DNA from: an uncultured archaeon
GTDB lineage: Archaea > Hadarchaeota > Hadarchaeia > Hadarchaeales > Hadarchaeaceae
Assembly (NCBI GenBank): GCA_937921735.1
Contig: CAKZTQ010000032.1
Location: forward strand, 12,083-76,082
DNA: 64,000 nt
Direction: 5' to 3'
This document shows positions 29,885 to 33,959 of the stretch, one piece after another (within the stretch, counting starts at the first letter, position 1; every line of letters starts with the position of its first letter). The notes under the pieces are model-generated. The model saw only the letters and a program-made list of their open reading frames with translations, was not told where the DNA came from and did not search any database. A program made the position numbers and the translations under genes.

Positions 29885-30478
29885 TTATCGATGGGAAAGT
29901 TTTGCGTAGCGCTTGTCGAGTTCTTCTACCAGCTCCTTTACCTCCTTGATTTCGGCAGCGTAGGGGCCTAGGTCTGCGTGCACGGCTCGCCAGAGCTCGT
30001 CTAACTCGCGCGCGCGATTTCCACGTTCTCGATACTTAATAGCTTGAATTAGCATAGAGAGATAGTCAGCCGCGTGGACGATCTTCGCCTCAAAGGTGTA
30101 CTTCTCCGAGTACTCCCGCCAAAGTTCCATAAGCATTTGTTGATTGGGCAGACCGGCGACGAGATCCCTCATCGCCTTGCCCTCCATTTGTTTCTTAGTT
30201 CCGGGTTCCCCCAAATACTTCAAAGCCGTGTAGGGAAAGTCCGCAACCATCGCCTCTGCCCAGTCATGCAGAAGCGCCATGCTGAGGGCCCTTTCGACAT
30301 CTAGCTCGCGGCCGCCGCGCTTTGCCTCGTCCGCTAGCAGGAGCGCGATCGCCGCTACCTCAAAGGTATGCTGTGCAACGTCTTCGACTTCGTTCAATGG
30401 CACATTGCACAGCAGCCAACCCGTTCGGGGTATACGCTTGAGGTCGTTAAGTTTTTCCAAAAGCTCGCTCAGTTTCAA
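29885..30478 (-). CDS. HD-domain phosphohydrolase (YfbR/5'-deoxynucleotidase-like)
   Basis: LKRIPRTGW, E-VAQH, ALLHD-AE, AD. Confidence 0.88.
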   Translation of the reverse strand: MKLSELLEKLNDLKRIPRTGWLLCNVPLNEVEDVAQHTFEVAAIALLLADEAKRGGRELDVERALSMALLHDWAEAMVADFPYTALKYLGEPGTKKQMEGKAMRDLVAGLPNQQMLMELWREYSEKYTFEAKIVHAADYLSMLIQAIKYRERGNRARELDELWRAVHADLGPYAAEIKEVKELVEELDKRYAKLSHR

Positions 30479-30879
30479 ACTACCACCAACTTAGCCTGCT
30501 TAACGCCCCGCATGGCTCCGATGCGGTCGACAAGCTTGCGGATTTCGTCCGCCGCTCCTTTCACGACGATGATCTCTAGGCAATTCTTGGCATCGACGTG
30601 CAAGTGCTGGGCGGCGCTTATCACCTTCGAGTGCTGGTGCTGGATGTCCATGAGTTCGTCCACCAACCCCCTGACGTCGTGCTCGTAAAGCACCATGATG
30701 GCCCCCAGCTGCTCACCCTTCAACTCGCTCCTCCACTTGTAGTTCGCCAAGAAATCGCGAAGGGCGTCCCTAATGGCTTCCGAGCGGCTCGCGTAGCGTT
30801 GAGCCCTAAGCACGCGATCGAGTTCGTCGAGCAGCTCACAAGGCAGGGTGAGGCTTATGCGAGCTATTCTCGAAGACAT
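30475..30879 (-). CDS. nikR: Nickel-responsive regulator NikR
   Basis: RHH domain (RISLTL...SRSEAIRDA); Ni-site pattern QH...HLH-x5-C. Confidence 0.95.
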   Translation of the reverse strand: MSSRIARISLTLPCELLDELDRVLRAQRYASRSEAIRDALRDFLANYKWRSELKGEQLGAIMVLYEHDVRGLVDELMDIQHQHSKVISAAQHLHVDAKNCLEIIVVKGAADEIRKLVDRIGAMRGVKQAKLVVV

Positions 30880-30929
30880 GATGGCACGATTGAATTTGCA
30901 AGATTTGGACATTTATGTTTTGCCGAAAC

Positions 30930-31223
30930 TCAGCACTTTGAGCGGGGTCTCGAGAGGACGACTGCGAAACCCCAAATGACGAGCACCGGGATGAGCATCA
31001 CGATTCCAAGTATGATCCCGCTAGTGATAGCCCCTTCCGTGGTCACCCGTATGAATTCCCCTCCTTCGTGCAGGTATCCGAGCACGTGGTCGACGAGTAT
31101 CATCACCGTTGCTCCCCAAAGCATCAGACTCAGCATTCCGAGCTTGTATTCCCTGATGCCTAGAATTCTTAGCACCGTCACTAGACATGCCGCGATCAAC
31201 GTCGTTATCAGCCACATGCTCAT
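30930..31223 (-). CDS. Small 3-TM membrane protein (paralog of 31226-31552), NikR operon
   Basis: Three hydrophobic helices; LWGATVMILVDH motif. Confidence 0.75.
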   Translation of the reverse strand: MSMWLITTLIAACLVTVLRILGIREYKLGMLSLMLWGATVMILVDHVLGYLHEGGEFIRVTTEGAITSGIILGIVMLIPVLVIWGFAVVLSRPRSKC

Positions 31224-31225
31224 GC

Positions 31226-31552
31226 CTACCTACGGATACCCAATCTCGTTTCCATCGTCTTTATCAAGTTGAGCCGCGGGGCGATCGTCAGCATGCCTGT
31301 CCAAAGGAGAGTGCATGCTAGGGCCATTGGAACTCCGATCCGAACCATTTCCGGCAGGACTTCAGATAGTCCGGCGGTCAAGAAGGGCGGATATGGCACG
31401 ATTTCTCCGTGAGCTAAATGTTCGACCGCCAACATCGCCACGCCGCCCCACAGTAGAGCGTTTAGCCAGTTTATGTTGTACCTCGTCGGGAACTTTTTCC
31501 TGAACAGCGTGGTTATCGCGCCCAGCGCCATGGGAACGAGGAAACAAGCCAC
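31226..31552 (-). CDS. Small 3-TM membrane protein (MACFLVP...), first gene of the NikR operon
   Basis: GTG start after a GAGGTGA SD; LWGGVAMLAVEH-x2-HGE, PPFLTA. Confidence 0.75.
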   Translation of the reverse strand: MACFLVPMALGAITTLFRKKFPTRYNINWLNALLWGGVAMLAVEHLAHGEIVPYPPFLTAGLSEVLPEMVRIGVPMALACTLLWTGMLTIAPRLNLIKTMETRLGIRR

Positions 31553-31572
31553 CCTTTCACCTCTTGCTTTTT

Positions 31573-31600
31573 GTAATACTTTTCCATATTTAAATATTAC
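31573..31600. promoter_or_regulatory. Putative NikR operator overlapping a TATA box
   Basis: Perfect inverted half-sites GTAATA (31573-31578) and TATTAC (31595-31600) with a 16-nt spacer that contains the minus-strand TTTAAATA. Same geometry as the E. coli NikR site GTATGA-N16-TCATAC. Confidence 0.75.
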
Positions 31601-31687: not shown

Positions 31688-31954
31688 ATGGAAAAGGAAC
31701 CTGTTGAGAAGAAACTCGTAGGAAAGGTTACCCACTACTTTACGAGGATTGGGGTAGCAGTCGTTGAGTTGACAGACGAGTTAAAGATAGGCGACAGGAT
31801 TTCCATAGAGGGCGCGACCACGAATTTTCAACAGGTAGTGGGCTCCATGCAGATCGAACATAAAGACGTAAAGGTCGCTACGGCTGGGCAATCGATAGGT
31901 CTGAAGGTCGACCAAAGGGCACGTGAAGGGGACCTCGTCTACAAGATCCTTTAA
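31688..31954 (+). CDS. Translation-factor-like beta-barrel small protein
   Basis: VGKVTHYF-IGVA, L-IGD-I-I-G-TTNF-Q-V-SMQIEH, G-KV. Confidence 0.8.
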   Translation: MEKEPVEKKLVGKVTHYFTRIGVAVVELTDELKIGDRISIEGATTNFQQVVGSMQIEHKDVKVATAGQSIGLKVDQRAREGDLVYKIL

Positions 31955-32823
31955 GCGGTTAGATCTAGCTTAAAAAGCAGGATTTTCGCCTTTCTTATAT
32001 TTTCGGGAAGATTTCTGCAGTTCTTACAAAGGCCCATAGTTTGGGCGATCAAATCGCGATACCCTGAGAACTTCTCCTTTTTTTCCAGTATTCTGTCTAA
32101 GGTTCTCTCGAGTTGGGGGGTCGGCGCGAAAGTACTTCCGCATGCTGAGCATCGCCGCAGCTCTATCTTGGCTTCAGCCCCGATCGCTTTTCTATCCCCA
32201 GTTGCTCGTGGGCGCTCGGCCCCAAGCTCCACTGCCTCCTCCGGGCAGGCCTCCTCGCAGGAGGCACAGGAAATGCACTTTTCGTATCTGAACCTCACCT
32301 TTCGTTCGTTGCCTTCGTCGACCATCTCTATTGCTCCAGTCGGACAAACCTGCACACAGGCCCCGCATCCGGTGCACTTCTCCGCGTCGATATTGGGCAT
32401 TCCCCGAAAGCCACCGGGCACCTCCCAAGCTTTTGACCCCAGCTTTAAAACGTCAACGAGAGCCTCGACGATGGCGTGAGGGCTTGGAGGACACCCAGGC
32501 ACATATGCGTCCACGTGAATTATTTCGTCCACCATGCCGTCCACGCTATAAGAGCCCTCGAAGGCCTCGCCGGACAGGGCACAAGCGCCGACCGCGATGG
32601 CTAGCCTCGGCGGCTTCAACCTTTCGTATACTTCTCTGAGCATATCTCGCGTCTTGACCGTCGGTACCCCTGTGACGATGAGCACGTTGGCCTCACTTGG
32701 GTCCCCGACGAGCTTTACCCCCAGCTCCTCTAACCCGAACCTTCTCGCAAATGCGCTGAACACTTCGATGTCACATCCGTTGCACGAGCCTACGTCCAGA
32801 CGATAAACGTTGACCTGCCTCAA
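31951..32823 (-). CDS. Group 4 [NiFe]-hydrogenase small subunit (NuoB-like) fused to a 2x[4Fe-4S] NuoI-like domain
   Basis: GSCNGCDIE, GACA, VPGCPP; then GFRG-P, two CxxCxxCxxxCP motifs and extra C-terminal CxxC pairs. Confidence 0.9.
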   Translation of the reverse strand: MRQVNVYRLDVGSCNGCDIEVFSAFARRFGLEELGVKLVGDPSEANVLIVTGVPTVKTRDMLREVYERLKPPRLAIAVGACALSGEAFEGSYSVDGMVDEIIHVDAYVPGCPPSPHAIVEALVDVLKLGSKAWEVPGGFRGMPNIDAEKCTGCGACVQVCPTGAIEMVDEGNERKVRFRYEKCISCASCEEACPEEAVELGAERPRATGDRKAIGAEAKIELRRCSACGSTFAPTPQLERTLDRILEKKEKFSGYRDLIAQTMGLCKNCRNLPENIRKAKILLFKLDLTA

Positions 32824-33959
32824 ACCCCTCTCCTGAGCTCCGACAGCTCCACCTGATGCTTTTTTCCAGTTCGTTGATCTACGAGCGTCAGACGATTTGT
32901 GCAGGAGATGCAGCGGTCTATGCTTTCTAAAATCAAGGGAAGGTCACTTAACCTCTGTCCCCGCAACATCTCAGGGAGGCTGCGCTCGTTCATGTAGGTG
33001 GGCGTTCTGATCTTTACCCTCTCAGGGATGTTCGTGCCGTTCGACTTGACGAAGTAGATCAATTCGCCTCGCGGCGCTTCCACCCTCCCAACCTCTTCCT
33101 TTTCCTTTGGCGGCTCGCCAACTTCGGCCGCGATGTTGCCGGATGGGAAATCGTCTAATAGCTGCCGTATGATCTCGATGCTTTCAAAAGTTTCCTTTAC
33201 CCTGACAAGCGTTCTCGAAAGCACGTCTCCCCCGTCCTCCACCTGCACCTCGAAGTCTACCTCTTCGTATGCGGCGTAGGGATCGTCCTTGCGAACGTCG
33301 CTCTCAACGCCGGATGCCCTCAAAACGGGCCCCACGACACCTAACGCCAGCGCTTTCTCCCTTGGCAATGGGCCTATCCCCGAAAGTTTCGGGGCAAGTT
33401 CCCGCGTGGCACGGGCGATGTACCCTGAGAGGCTTGTTAAATCGTCTAGCGCGTGTCTAAGTCTTCTGATCATCTCCACGCTTAGGTCCCCCCTCACCCC
33501 ACCTATCGCGTTGATCCCATAATGGACGCGGTTGCCGCACATCAGCTCGATCAGATCCATGATTTCCTCCCGCGCATCGACGATTTTGATGAAATGTTCC
33601 TTTTCGCCGAGGGTGTGAAACAGTAACGCGGTCCATAGATAATGGCTCTGGAGCCGCTCAAGTTCAAACATAATCGTTCGAATGTACTTGGCCCTCTCCG
33701 GTGGCTCAACCTCGAAGACCTTCTCTACGGTTTGACAGTAACAAGTGGTGTGGGCATGTGAGCAAAATCCGCATATCCGCTCGCATAGGAAAACGCCTTG
33801 GGCATAGGTCTTTGTGGCGAGGAGCCTCTCGATGCCCCTATGCGTGTAACCTTGCTTTATGTCCACGTCGACGATCTTCTCGTTGCTCACCGTAACTTCG
33901 TAGAGTTCGGGCTCTACCAAGGCAGGATGATAAGGACCTATGACTACTATTTTCGACGT
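32820..33959 (-). CDS. Group 4 [NiFe]-hydrogenase large subunit
   Basis: GPYHPALVEP, HRGIE, L1 ERICGFC, ELERL-SH, EAPRGE, RTPT, L2 DRCISCTNR plus C-terminal extension. Start uncertain (ACG at 33959). Confidence 0.9.
   Translation of the reverse strand, partial: TSKIVVIGPYHPALVEPELYEVTVSNEKIVDVDIKQGYTHRGIERLLATKTYAQGVFLCERICGFCSHAHTTCYCQTVEKVFEVEPPERAKYIRTIMFELERLQSHYLWTALLFHTLGEKEHFIKIVDAREEIMDLIELMCGNRVHYGINAIGGVRGDLSVEMIRRLRHALDDLTSLSGYIARATRELAPKLSGIGPLPREKALALGVVGPVLRASGVESDVRKDDPYAAYEEVDFEVQVEDGGDVLSRTLVRVKETFESIEIIRQLLDDFPSGNIAAEVGEPPKEKEEVGRVEAPRGELIYFVKSNGTNIPERVKIRTPTYMNERSLPEMLRGQRLSDLPLILESIDRCISCTNRLTLVDQRTGKKHQVELSELRRGV

Follow-up and report, generated by a model that had tools for sequence, protein, structure and literature searches.

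In a 64,000-nucleotide stretch of DNA from an uncultured archaeon of the Hadarchaeaceae (assembly GCA_937921735.1, contig CAKZTQ010000032.1, positions 12,083 to 76,082 of the forward strand; hereafter, the window), two adjacent genes, here called A and B, encode membrane proteins of about 100 residues, each with three predicted transmembrane (TM) helices, and are followed on the same strand by nikR. The two proteins are probably the subunits of a nickel permease, predicted to represent a new family of two-subunit Ni(II) importers under repression by NikR. In terms of sequence, this would be a new protein family that does a known job, NikR-controlled nickel import. A model that read the DNA without database searches (the sequence-only reading) had already described the two small proteins and the nikR gene behind them as a NikR-controlled module of an unrecognized family, with the two proteins as a pseudo-symmetric heterodimeric Ni(II)/Co(II) permease or metal-handling module; the open reading frames lie where it had placed them, and the module is borne out by the paralogy of A and B, their pairing in 78 of 80 loci, the linkage to NikR, the nickel-related neighbors and a near-exclusivity with NikM/CbiM. 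From these lines of evidence, all of them comparative, we infer transport itself, its direction, the specificity for nickel over cobalt, metal binding and repression.

A and B are paralogous. A carries the motif LWGGVAMLAVEH and B the motif LWGATVMILVDH, a shared core that the sequence-only reading had picked out; BLASTP aligns the two proteins with an E value of 8e-5, and a profile-profile comparison (hhalign) gives a probability of 96.8% and an E value of 2.4e-10 over 85 columns. The N-terminus of A reads M-A-C-F, and further on the protein has E44-H45-x2-H48-x-E50, then an invariant YPPFLTAG and P-E-M, so that the N-terminal MAC and the second histidine singled out earlier are both present. 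B has an invariant D45-H46 followed by E-G-G-x-F and is without the N-terminal cysteine. These features are strongly conserved among homologs. The M-x-C start is found in 116 of 120 A matches and in 116 of 119 matches of a Lachnospiraceae type, EHxxHxE in 119 and 118 of the same sets, and VDH in 117 of 120 B matches, while H45 is invariant across A, B and a further paralog, C, which is described below.

Comparison with known families gives next to nothing. At E<=1, A matches nothing in Pfam or NCBIfam, and B matches only Vpu, at chance level (E 0.84). None of the matches of 23 superfamily members to Pfam falls below an E value of 0.001, the best hit of a sequence-profile search against the PDB has an E value of only 0.12, and a homolog (P0110) belongs only to unnamed clusters, without Pfam assignment, in the protein Atlas. 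The earlier statement that no known nickel transporter family is represented here thus agrees with the Pfam, NCBIfam and PDB profile searches. Nor was a description of the family found in the parts of the full-text literature that were searched, which include portions of PMC2667541, PMC545781 and PMC13524815 and exclude supplementary tables. The family itself is large. A word-indexed search returned 746 homologs of A and 309 of B, all named hypothetical and those of A lacking a Pfam assignment, and the identity between archaeal and bacterial homologs is unusually high, at about 60%. A profile of the superfamily matches 573 clusters at 50% identity, of which 224 reach E<=1e-10. One branch, in which the first loop is long, has at least 7,978 matches and is abundant among Lachnospiraceae of the gut and rumen, such as Agathobacter and Acetatifactor.

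The distribution of charges in A, B and C is the same. Lysine and arginine average 2.3-5.7 in loop 1 and the C-terminal tail, and about 0.2 in loop 2, between TM2 and TM3, where there are 3.5-5 aspartates and glutamates. The implied topology, common to all branches of the family, is one in which the N-terminus and loop 2 face the exterior of the cell and the other two segments, loop 1 and the C-terminal tail, the interior; the most conserved residues of A and B then all lie on the predicted outer face. The (D/E)H that the sequence-only reading took to be conserved and intramembrane is indeed conserved, but by the charge distribution it sits at the outer end of TM2 and not deep in the membrane. 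An AF2 model of A (pLDDT 82.3) has helices at residues 2-16, 27-47 and 62-93 and a short helix in a loop.

Do A and B act together? Two sets of loci were examined, one of 80 genome loci taken from contigs of one genome per species and a separate one of 80 loci from gut and rumen metagenomes. In the genome set, 78 loci have B at most 200 nt from A, in the order A-B in 16 and B-A in 62; of the other two, the first is at the edge of its contig and the second is without B. A B-type open reading frame follows A in at least 71 of the gut and rumen loci. There are also natural A-B fusions, represented by seven proteins of 195-233 residues, which indicate, by the Rosetta-stone argument, that A and B work as one unit. 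In six of the seven, the B part does not begin until model position 17-24, and the first TM helix of B is therefore absent. This loss is required by the predicted topology, because A ends inside and TM2 of B starts inside, and it provides independent support for a parallel orientation of the two proteins. A complex prediction for A and B from the two family alignments scored 0.11, against a mark of 0.32. One locus (L072) was considered as a further A-B fusion and rejected, since there is a stop codon between the two genes.

The regulator is readily recognized. The product of the gene behind B matches Pfam NikR_C (6.4e-28; 97.2 bits against a cut-off of 22) and, over residues 18-56, RHH_1 (8.4e-8), which corresponds to the N-terminal ribbon-helix-helix domain; it also exceeds the cut-offs of NCBIfam NF002169 (162.4 bits against 111) and NF003381 (133 bits against 105). 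Its translation contains IQHQHSKVISAAQHLHVDAKNC, with the spacing H-x10-H-x-H-x5-C, which we take to be that of the high-affinity nickel ligands H76, H87, H89 and C95 of E. coli NikR. By these matches the gene is nikR, as had been proposed.

Upstream of A, 20 nt from its GTG start codon, is the palindrome GTAATA-N16-TATTAC with the TATA-like TTTAAATA inside its spacer, just as the sequence-only reading had described it, perfect and straddling a TATA box. There is no second perfect copy in the window, nor in the whole genome assembly (1,059,088 bases, 83% complete). The window holds three matches with up to two mismatches, a number that was reached by none of 100 shuffles. Three further Hadarchaeota loci have the same palindrome at -44 to -47 of the start of A, namely L001, L002 and L037, with A proteins that share 94, 64 and 56% identity with that of the window, and near-perfect versions are found in seven more (L008, L009, L011, L017, L026, L036 and L053). 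All 10 Hadarchaeota loci with a box have sites like GTAATA(T/C)-N14-(G/A)TA(A/T)TAC, 31-50 nt before the start codon. In the general layout of archaeal promoters, TTTAAATA would be the TATA box; the left half-site is then at the expected position of the transcription factor B recognition element, and the right half-site is between the TATA box and the expected start of transcription. The NikR signal, as set out in PMC545781, is an inverted repeat of 27-28 bp before nickel uptake genes, with 7-bp half-sites 13-14 bp apart; it reads GTGTTAC-N13/14-GTAACAC in delta-proteobacteria and GTATGAT-N13/14-ATCATAC in enterobacteria, with the half-sites sometimes reversed. The repeat in the window has this geometry, with its 28-bp span and 7-bp half-sites, but its half-sites read neither GTGTTAC nor GTATGAT, as the published ones do; in related loci, the versions GTAACAC, GTGTTAC or GTATTAC are found.

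The sequence-only reading had proposed a survey of the neighborhoods of homologs, and the survey turned up nikR, NikR boxes and nickel-cofactor genes. In the genome set, the fetched flanks of 53 of 80 loci include nikR. Its distance is at most 700 nt in 28 loci and 700-2500 nt in 24; in 26 it is transcribed divergently from the pair, and in 25 it precedes the pair on the same strand. The linkage recurs, in varying gene order, in Hadarchaeota, Thermoplasmatota, DPANN lineages, Omnitrophota and others. A perfect 6-N16-6 repeat is present in the 120 nt before the pair in 15 of 77 loci, compared with 3.0+-1.6 (maximum 6) in 200 shuffles, and 16 is the commonest of the spacer lengths from 8 to 23. 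Boxes of a class comprising GTAATAC, GTATTAC, GTAACAC, GTGTTAC and GTAGCAC are found in 26 of 77 upstream regions, whereas shuffles give 0.35 (maximum 3) and none of the 66 downstream regions used as a control has one, a contrast that is inflated, since the class was defined after the sequences had been seen. The bacterial nikR-porin-B-A operons are free of this weakness: 18 of 19 have a box of the GTGTTAC-N13-GTAACAC type, the consensus published in PMC545781, at most 200 nt before nikR, where shuffles give a mean of 0.20 and a maximum of 2.

Could the neighborhood and the palindrome be coincidental, with A and B being unrelated small membrane proteins? AT-rich archaeal promoters often hold short palindromes, and most family members are annotated only as hypothetical. 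However, this explanation is hardly credible when the same linkage recurs across phyla in different gene orders, when operators are enriched far above both shuffles and the downstream control, and when four independent kinds of nickel genes co-localize with the pair.

What are these other nickel genes? An OprB-family porin (Pfam 2e-30) is located between nikR and B in 20 loci, mostly of Omnitrophota, and a channel of the Phenol_MetA_deg type takes its place in seven. In diderms, an uptake system would be expected to combine a channel in the outer membrane with a pair such as this in the inner membrane. The hydrogenase maturation gene hypF adjoins the pair in 10 of the 80 genome loci, and hypA does so in five. 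Genes of the nickel-pincer cofactor pathway, namely larB (AIRC), larC (Ni_insertion, 3e-137) or a PP-loop larE-like gene, stand beside A-B in 15 of the 80 gut and rumen loci, and such genes also stand beside nikR-B-A in three Thermoplasmatota loci. In one locus (L148) the pair is inside a urease operon, in the order ureA-ureB-A-B-ureC-ureF-ureD. In known lar and urease clusters, the slot taken by A-B is usually filled by nickel importers (LarMNQO, UreH/UreJ, NixA). Two other features of the urease locus (L148:1892-7835) were noted: a second, fused ureA-ureB gene follows ureD (230 residues, gamma and beta domains), and there is an Rfam 5_ureB_sRNA match on the opposite strand, the one relevant match in an Rfam scan of 20 of the 80 gut and rumen loci, which detected no riboswitch.

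The pair also has a characteristic distribution among genomes. Of 66 Hadarchaeota genomes, 12 have A with B beside it (E<1e-40), 19 have C, and 14 have CbiM/NikM; NiCoT is found in none of the 66. A/B overlaps with neither CbiM nor C, C and CbiM occur together in one genome, and 22 genomes are without any of the three. For A/B or C versus CbiM, a one-sided Fisher test gives a p value of 0.0006, not corrected for phylogeny. In six of the genomes with CbiM, nikR adjoins cbiM/nikM, and in 12 of the 19 with C it is within 1.5 kb of C. In Hadarchaeota, therefore, nikR adjoins one of three alternative systems: A/B, C or CbiM. The window's own genome (83% complete) gives no match to CbiM, NiCoT or HupE/UreJ. 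One Omnitrophota class, sampled with 101 genomes, shows a similar pattern, with A in 7, CbiM in 35 and both in none (p=0.045).

C is a single-gene paralog of about 105 residues with the pattern MVCY...GPAGWWLN..YGG..VDHLWxGELFL, which keeps the M-x-C start and the DH..GE motif. No second family member is present beside C in the 10 loci with C in the open reading frame table, and C probably acts as a homodimer. In one genome, a fragment of C (G006:C1:37760-37924; model positions 41-95, E 1e-24) directly follows an A-B pair, which suggests that A-B replaced C in place.

Some Hadarchaeota have nikR and none of the three systems (10 genomes, 11 regions). Three of these contigs end beside nikR, the other regions have binding-protein or ABC-type neighbors, as judged by eye, and no further family members are present in the 11 regions. 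In one genus, g14 (L184, L185, L186 and L188), nikR appears by eye to be beside genes for a binding protein or an ABC ATPase and a gene for a protein with GKLHGHxCPFLALGVKAG; this may be yet another uptake system controlled by NikR.

The nickel connection alone does not say what the pair does with the metal. Rather than form a pore, it might handle nickel as a capture or delivery subunit (compare NikN, NikL, NikK and CbiN), as a sensor or as a chaperone. The pair is certainly minimal, with three TM helices per subunit, six per pair (five in the fusions) and no energy-coupling partner, and its conserved site faces outward, as would be expected of a capture device. There is also precedent in the small accessory nickel components NikK, NikL and NikN, which accompany a core transporter (PMC545781 and PMC2667541). 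On the other hand, clustering of the neighbors across the 80 loci yielded no third conserved membrane or ATPase partner; beyond nikR, the recurrent neighbors are only the outer-membrane porin of diderms and nickel-cofactor genes. The obvious cores are missing as well, with CbiM in 0 of the 12 Hadarchaeota genomes that have A/B and NiCoT nowhere in the phylum sample. In urease and lar clusters, moreover, the pair fills the slot usually occupied by a complete importer. A role without a pore is therefore rather unlikely.

Another conceivable role is the export or detoxification of nickel or cobalt. Sequence cannot give the direction of transport, small metal exporters do exist, and NikR can activate genes in some organisms, such as H. 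pylori. However, the candidate operator brackets the TATA box, which in archaea would be a repressing position; the pair replaces the importer NikMNQO phyletically; it is embedded in nickel-consuming lar, urease and hyp clusters; in diderms it shares an operon with a gene for an outer-membrane porin; and the Rfam scan of 20 of the 80 gut and rumen loci detected no NiCo riboswitch. Taken together, these points make an exporter very improbable.

Similarly, the substrate of the family, or of some of its branches, might be cobalt, another divalent metal or a metal chelate, with the linkage to NikR holding for only a part of the family. One gut or rumen locus (L129) has CysG/HemD, Peripla_BP_2, FecCD and an ABC ATPase directly 5' of A-B, genes for ZIP, ABC-3 and FeoB are found in some Omnitrophota flanks, and the known NiCoT and CbiM/NikM families are each split into nickel and cobalt branches. 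Set against this, the specific markers of the branch to which the window belongs are all nickel markers (NikR, NikR boxes, hyp, lar and urease), and the scan of the 20 gut and rumen loci found no cobalamin riboswitch either. A different substrate is thus very improbable as well.

The preferred reading, a NikR-repressed nickel importer, has points of its own to answer, of which the hindsight in the box class is one; the following all weigh against it. The direction of transport is not readable from sequence. No nikR is present in the flanks of 27 of the 80 genome loci, although in 16 of those 27 the flank on one side is shorter than 3 kb, and NikR is absent by blastp from all 80 gut and rumen loci, in 64 of which no nickel-related neighbor is recognized. 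The arrangement in L129 (792-6748), where A-B comes directly after an ABC system of the BtuF/FecCD type and CysG/HemD, points to cobalt or a corrin for some members. The exclusivity with CbiM is not absolute, since one genome (G038) carries both C and CbiM and an Omnitrophota genome (G069) carries A/B and CbiM on one contig; furthermore, the genome counts are phylogenetically non-independent, and most of the genomes are metagenome-assembled, many of these being incomplete. The histidine of the DH in the B part of fusions is often replaced (D-R, D-C, D-A) and is thus not essential everywhere. Finally, the fold gives no support, since the models are unlike any solved transporter: in Foldseek searches against the PDB, the best E value is 5.1 for A and 2.5 for a natural fusion (P0245), with TM-scores <=0.34 for both.

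Of the two nikR genes in genome G038 (C130, C5; 1.8 Mb, 4% contamination), the first adjoins cbiM/nikM and the second C; this genome may be either a mixed bin or a genuine double system.

How might such a small importer work? A and B would form a parallel, pseudo-symmetric heterodimer of 3+3 TM helices. The outer face would hold a metal site composed of the free N-terminus and Cys3 of A, its E44, H45, H48 and E50, and D45 and H46 of B together with the acidic loop. The residue at position 2 is small (Ala in A, Val in C), which makes removal of Met1 likely, and the X-Cys N-terminus left behind could offer an amine nitrogen, an amide nitrogen and a thiolate sulfur as square-planar ligands well suited to Ni(II). 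Such a hook resembles the N-terminal nickel site of NiSOD and the N-terminal site of NikM/CbiM. Nickel would then pass along the interface of TM2 and TM3 without the help of an ATPase. The neighborhood holds no conserved ATPase gene, and transport would therefore be of a secondary or channel-like kind, presumably driven by the membrane potential and by sequestration in the cytoplasm, as is assumed for other secondary nickel permeases. When nickel is replete, Ni-NikR would bind the 28-bp repeat that brackets the TATA box and block TBP and TFB, switching off A, B and probably also nikR and the downstream HD-domain gene. It is the position of the half-sites around the TATA box that suggests this exclusion of TBP and TFB, and repression at high nickel is the logic of an importer.

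How does the pair compare with known systems? HupE/UreJ proteins (PF04955) have about six TM helices and a conserved histidine near the outer face. The pair resembles them in its inferred nickel import, its occurrence in hydrogenase and urease clusters, its small size, its independence of an ATPase and its approximately six helices. However, PF04955 gives no match to A or B, HupE/UreJ is one six-helix chain whereas A/B is a two-gene 3+3 heteromer (or a five-helix fusion), and A has an N-terminal M-x-C instead of the processed, His-rich N-terminus of HupE. With NikM/CbiM (PF01891), the pair would share control by NikR, there is an adjacent nikR for both in the same phylum, and the two have a complementary phyletic pattern. 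In structures of NikM/CbiM, the conserved extreme N-terminus takes part in metal binding, with a histidine at position 2, where A has its cysteine at position 3. NikM/CbiM has seven TM helices compared with three in each of A and B, PF01891 gives no match to A/B at E<=1 or to 23 family members at E<=0.1, and, unlike in NikMNQO/CbiMNQO, there is no conserved gene for a Q (T-component) or O (ATPase) subunit beside the pair. The NiCoT family (HoxN/NixA/NhlF; PF03824) comprises secondary nickel and cobalt importers, which is also what A/B is predicted to be, but NiCoT proteins are single chains of eight TM helices, and PF03824 is without a match to A or B. CbtA/CbtB offers another parallel, being two small membrane proteins for which metal import was proposed from comparative genomics alone. 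A and B have no Pfam match to the CbtA and CbtB families, A and B are paralogs whereas CbtA and CbtB are not, and the genomic links of CbtAB are with B12 riboswitches and cobalamin synthesis, not with NikR. Both groups are treated in PMC2667541, where NiCoT importers are NikR targets in several organisms, as is predicted of A/B, and CbtA/CbtB is listed among the predicted cobalt transporters.

A wider claim can be made, although it is a tentative one and its odds are clearly shorter on the doubtful side. Under this claim, A/B, C and the five-helix fusions would constitute a categorically new superfamily of minimal metal permeases, with a selectivity filter made of a free N-terminus and the cysteine next to it, together with the (D/E)H in TM2 of each protomer. 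The superfamily would be the main route of nickel entry in many uncultured archaea (Hadarchaeota, Thermoplasmatota, DPANN and Asgard), in Omnitrophota, in CPR bacteria and in abundant Lachnospiraceae of the human gut, and would feed [NiFe]-hydrogenases, urease and Lar enzymes.

Whatever becomes of that claim, the A/B family spans archaea and bacteria, from hot springs to the human gut, and its links extend to four different nickel systems, namely NikR, the maturation of hydrogenases, urease and the nickel-pincer cofactor pathway. The pair is a testable candidate for the nickel importer of such organisms and, with about 200 residues in total, should be easy to express. If the prediction is true, thousands of "hypothetical proteins" would gain an annotation, the metabolism of uncultured hydrogen- and CO-metabolizing archaea could be reconstructed better, a nickel supply route would be identified in common gut Firmicutes, and studies of metal selectivity would have a new minimal scaffold.

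Table 1. Features of the A-B-nikR locus and its surroundings, in coordinates of the window
Feature	Position	Strand	Basis or description
Subunit A	31226..31552	-	Open reading frame, 108 aa, GTG start, 3 predicted TM helices
Subunit B	30930..31223	-	Open reading frame, 97 aa as called, 3-TM paralog of A
nikR, nickel-responsive ribbon-helix-helix repressor	30475..30912	-	Pfam and NCBIfam
Candidate NikR operator, 28-bp inverted repeat	31573..31600	.	GTAATAT-N14-GTATTAC = GTAATA-N16-TATTAC
TATA-box-like TTTAAATA in operator spacer	31587..31594	-	Read in the sequence
Shine-Dalgarno-like GAGGTGA, 4 nt 5' of the GTG of A	31557..31563	-	Read in the sequence; putative role
HD-domain phosphohydrolase (YfbR-like)	29885..30478	-	Pfam HD_3 1.1e-28, YfbR-like 6.7e-18
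[NiFe]-hydrogenase small and large subunits, group-4-type	31951..33920	-	Pfam domains and motifs

Two of the start codons in the locus (Table 1) are probably placed too far upstream. Homologs of B begin with MWL..., so the true start of B is probably the second ATG, at 31217, which would give a protein of 95 residues. Similarly, NikR homologs begin near "..KITRVSLTLP", and the start of nikR is therefore probably the ATG at 30879 and not the codon at 30912.

The neighboring [NiFe]-hydrogenase that the sequence-only reading had invoked is there, and Pfam recognizes both of its subunits: the open reading frame at 31951-32823 has Oxidored_q6 and Fer4 domains, and that at 32820-33920 has Complex1_49kDa and NiFeSe_Hases domains. 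The motifs RICGFCSHAH and DRCISCTNR are present in the translation. This hydrogenase is a likely consumer of the imported nickel, and by synteny it is plausible that A/B serves it.

The start of the HD-domain gene overlaps the stop codon of nikR, and this gene is probably the last one of the A-B-nikR transcription unit, although its membership in the functional module is uncertain. The nikR-HD pair recurs in many Hadarchaeota loci, as seen by eye with conserved N-termini. E. coli YfbR prefers Co2+, and by analogy the HD protein may be a metal-dependent enzyme that is co-regulated with nikR.

Two copies of the palindrome with one mismatch, elsewhere in the genome, were considered as members of a NikR regulon and rejected, since they have no nickel context. 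One is inside a deoxyhypusine-synthase-like gene. The other (G000:C12:1479-1506, L083) is between a gene for a 201-residue protein and two small genes, whose products appear by eye to have ribbon-helix-helix-like C-termini; no nickel link was seen there.

In four sequencing runs from hot springs, there are contigs of relatives of the window that are about 94% identical to it; two of these runs are labelled metatranscriptomic and are flagged as probably DNA.

Finally, a protein of 88 residues is encoded at 31688-31954 on the plus strand; its gene and that for A diverge from a shared intergenic region. The protein resembles EF-Tu domain 2 (6e-5) and the C-terminal beta-barrel of Peptidase_U32 (2e-4), both Pfam matches being below the cut-offs. 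Its gene adjoins A, C or nikR in eight other Hadarchaeota loci (L086, L088, L089, L090, L091, L093, L095 and L181), and it may share the intergenic region that NikR is predicted to control.

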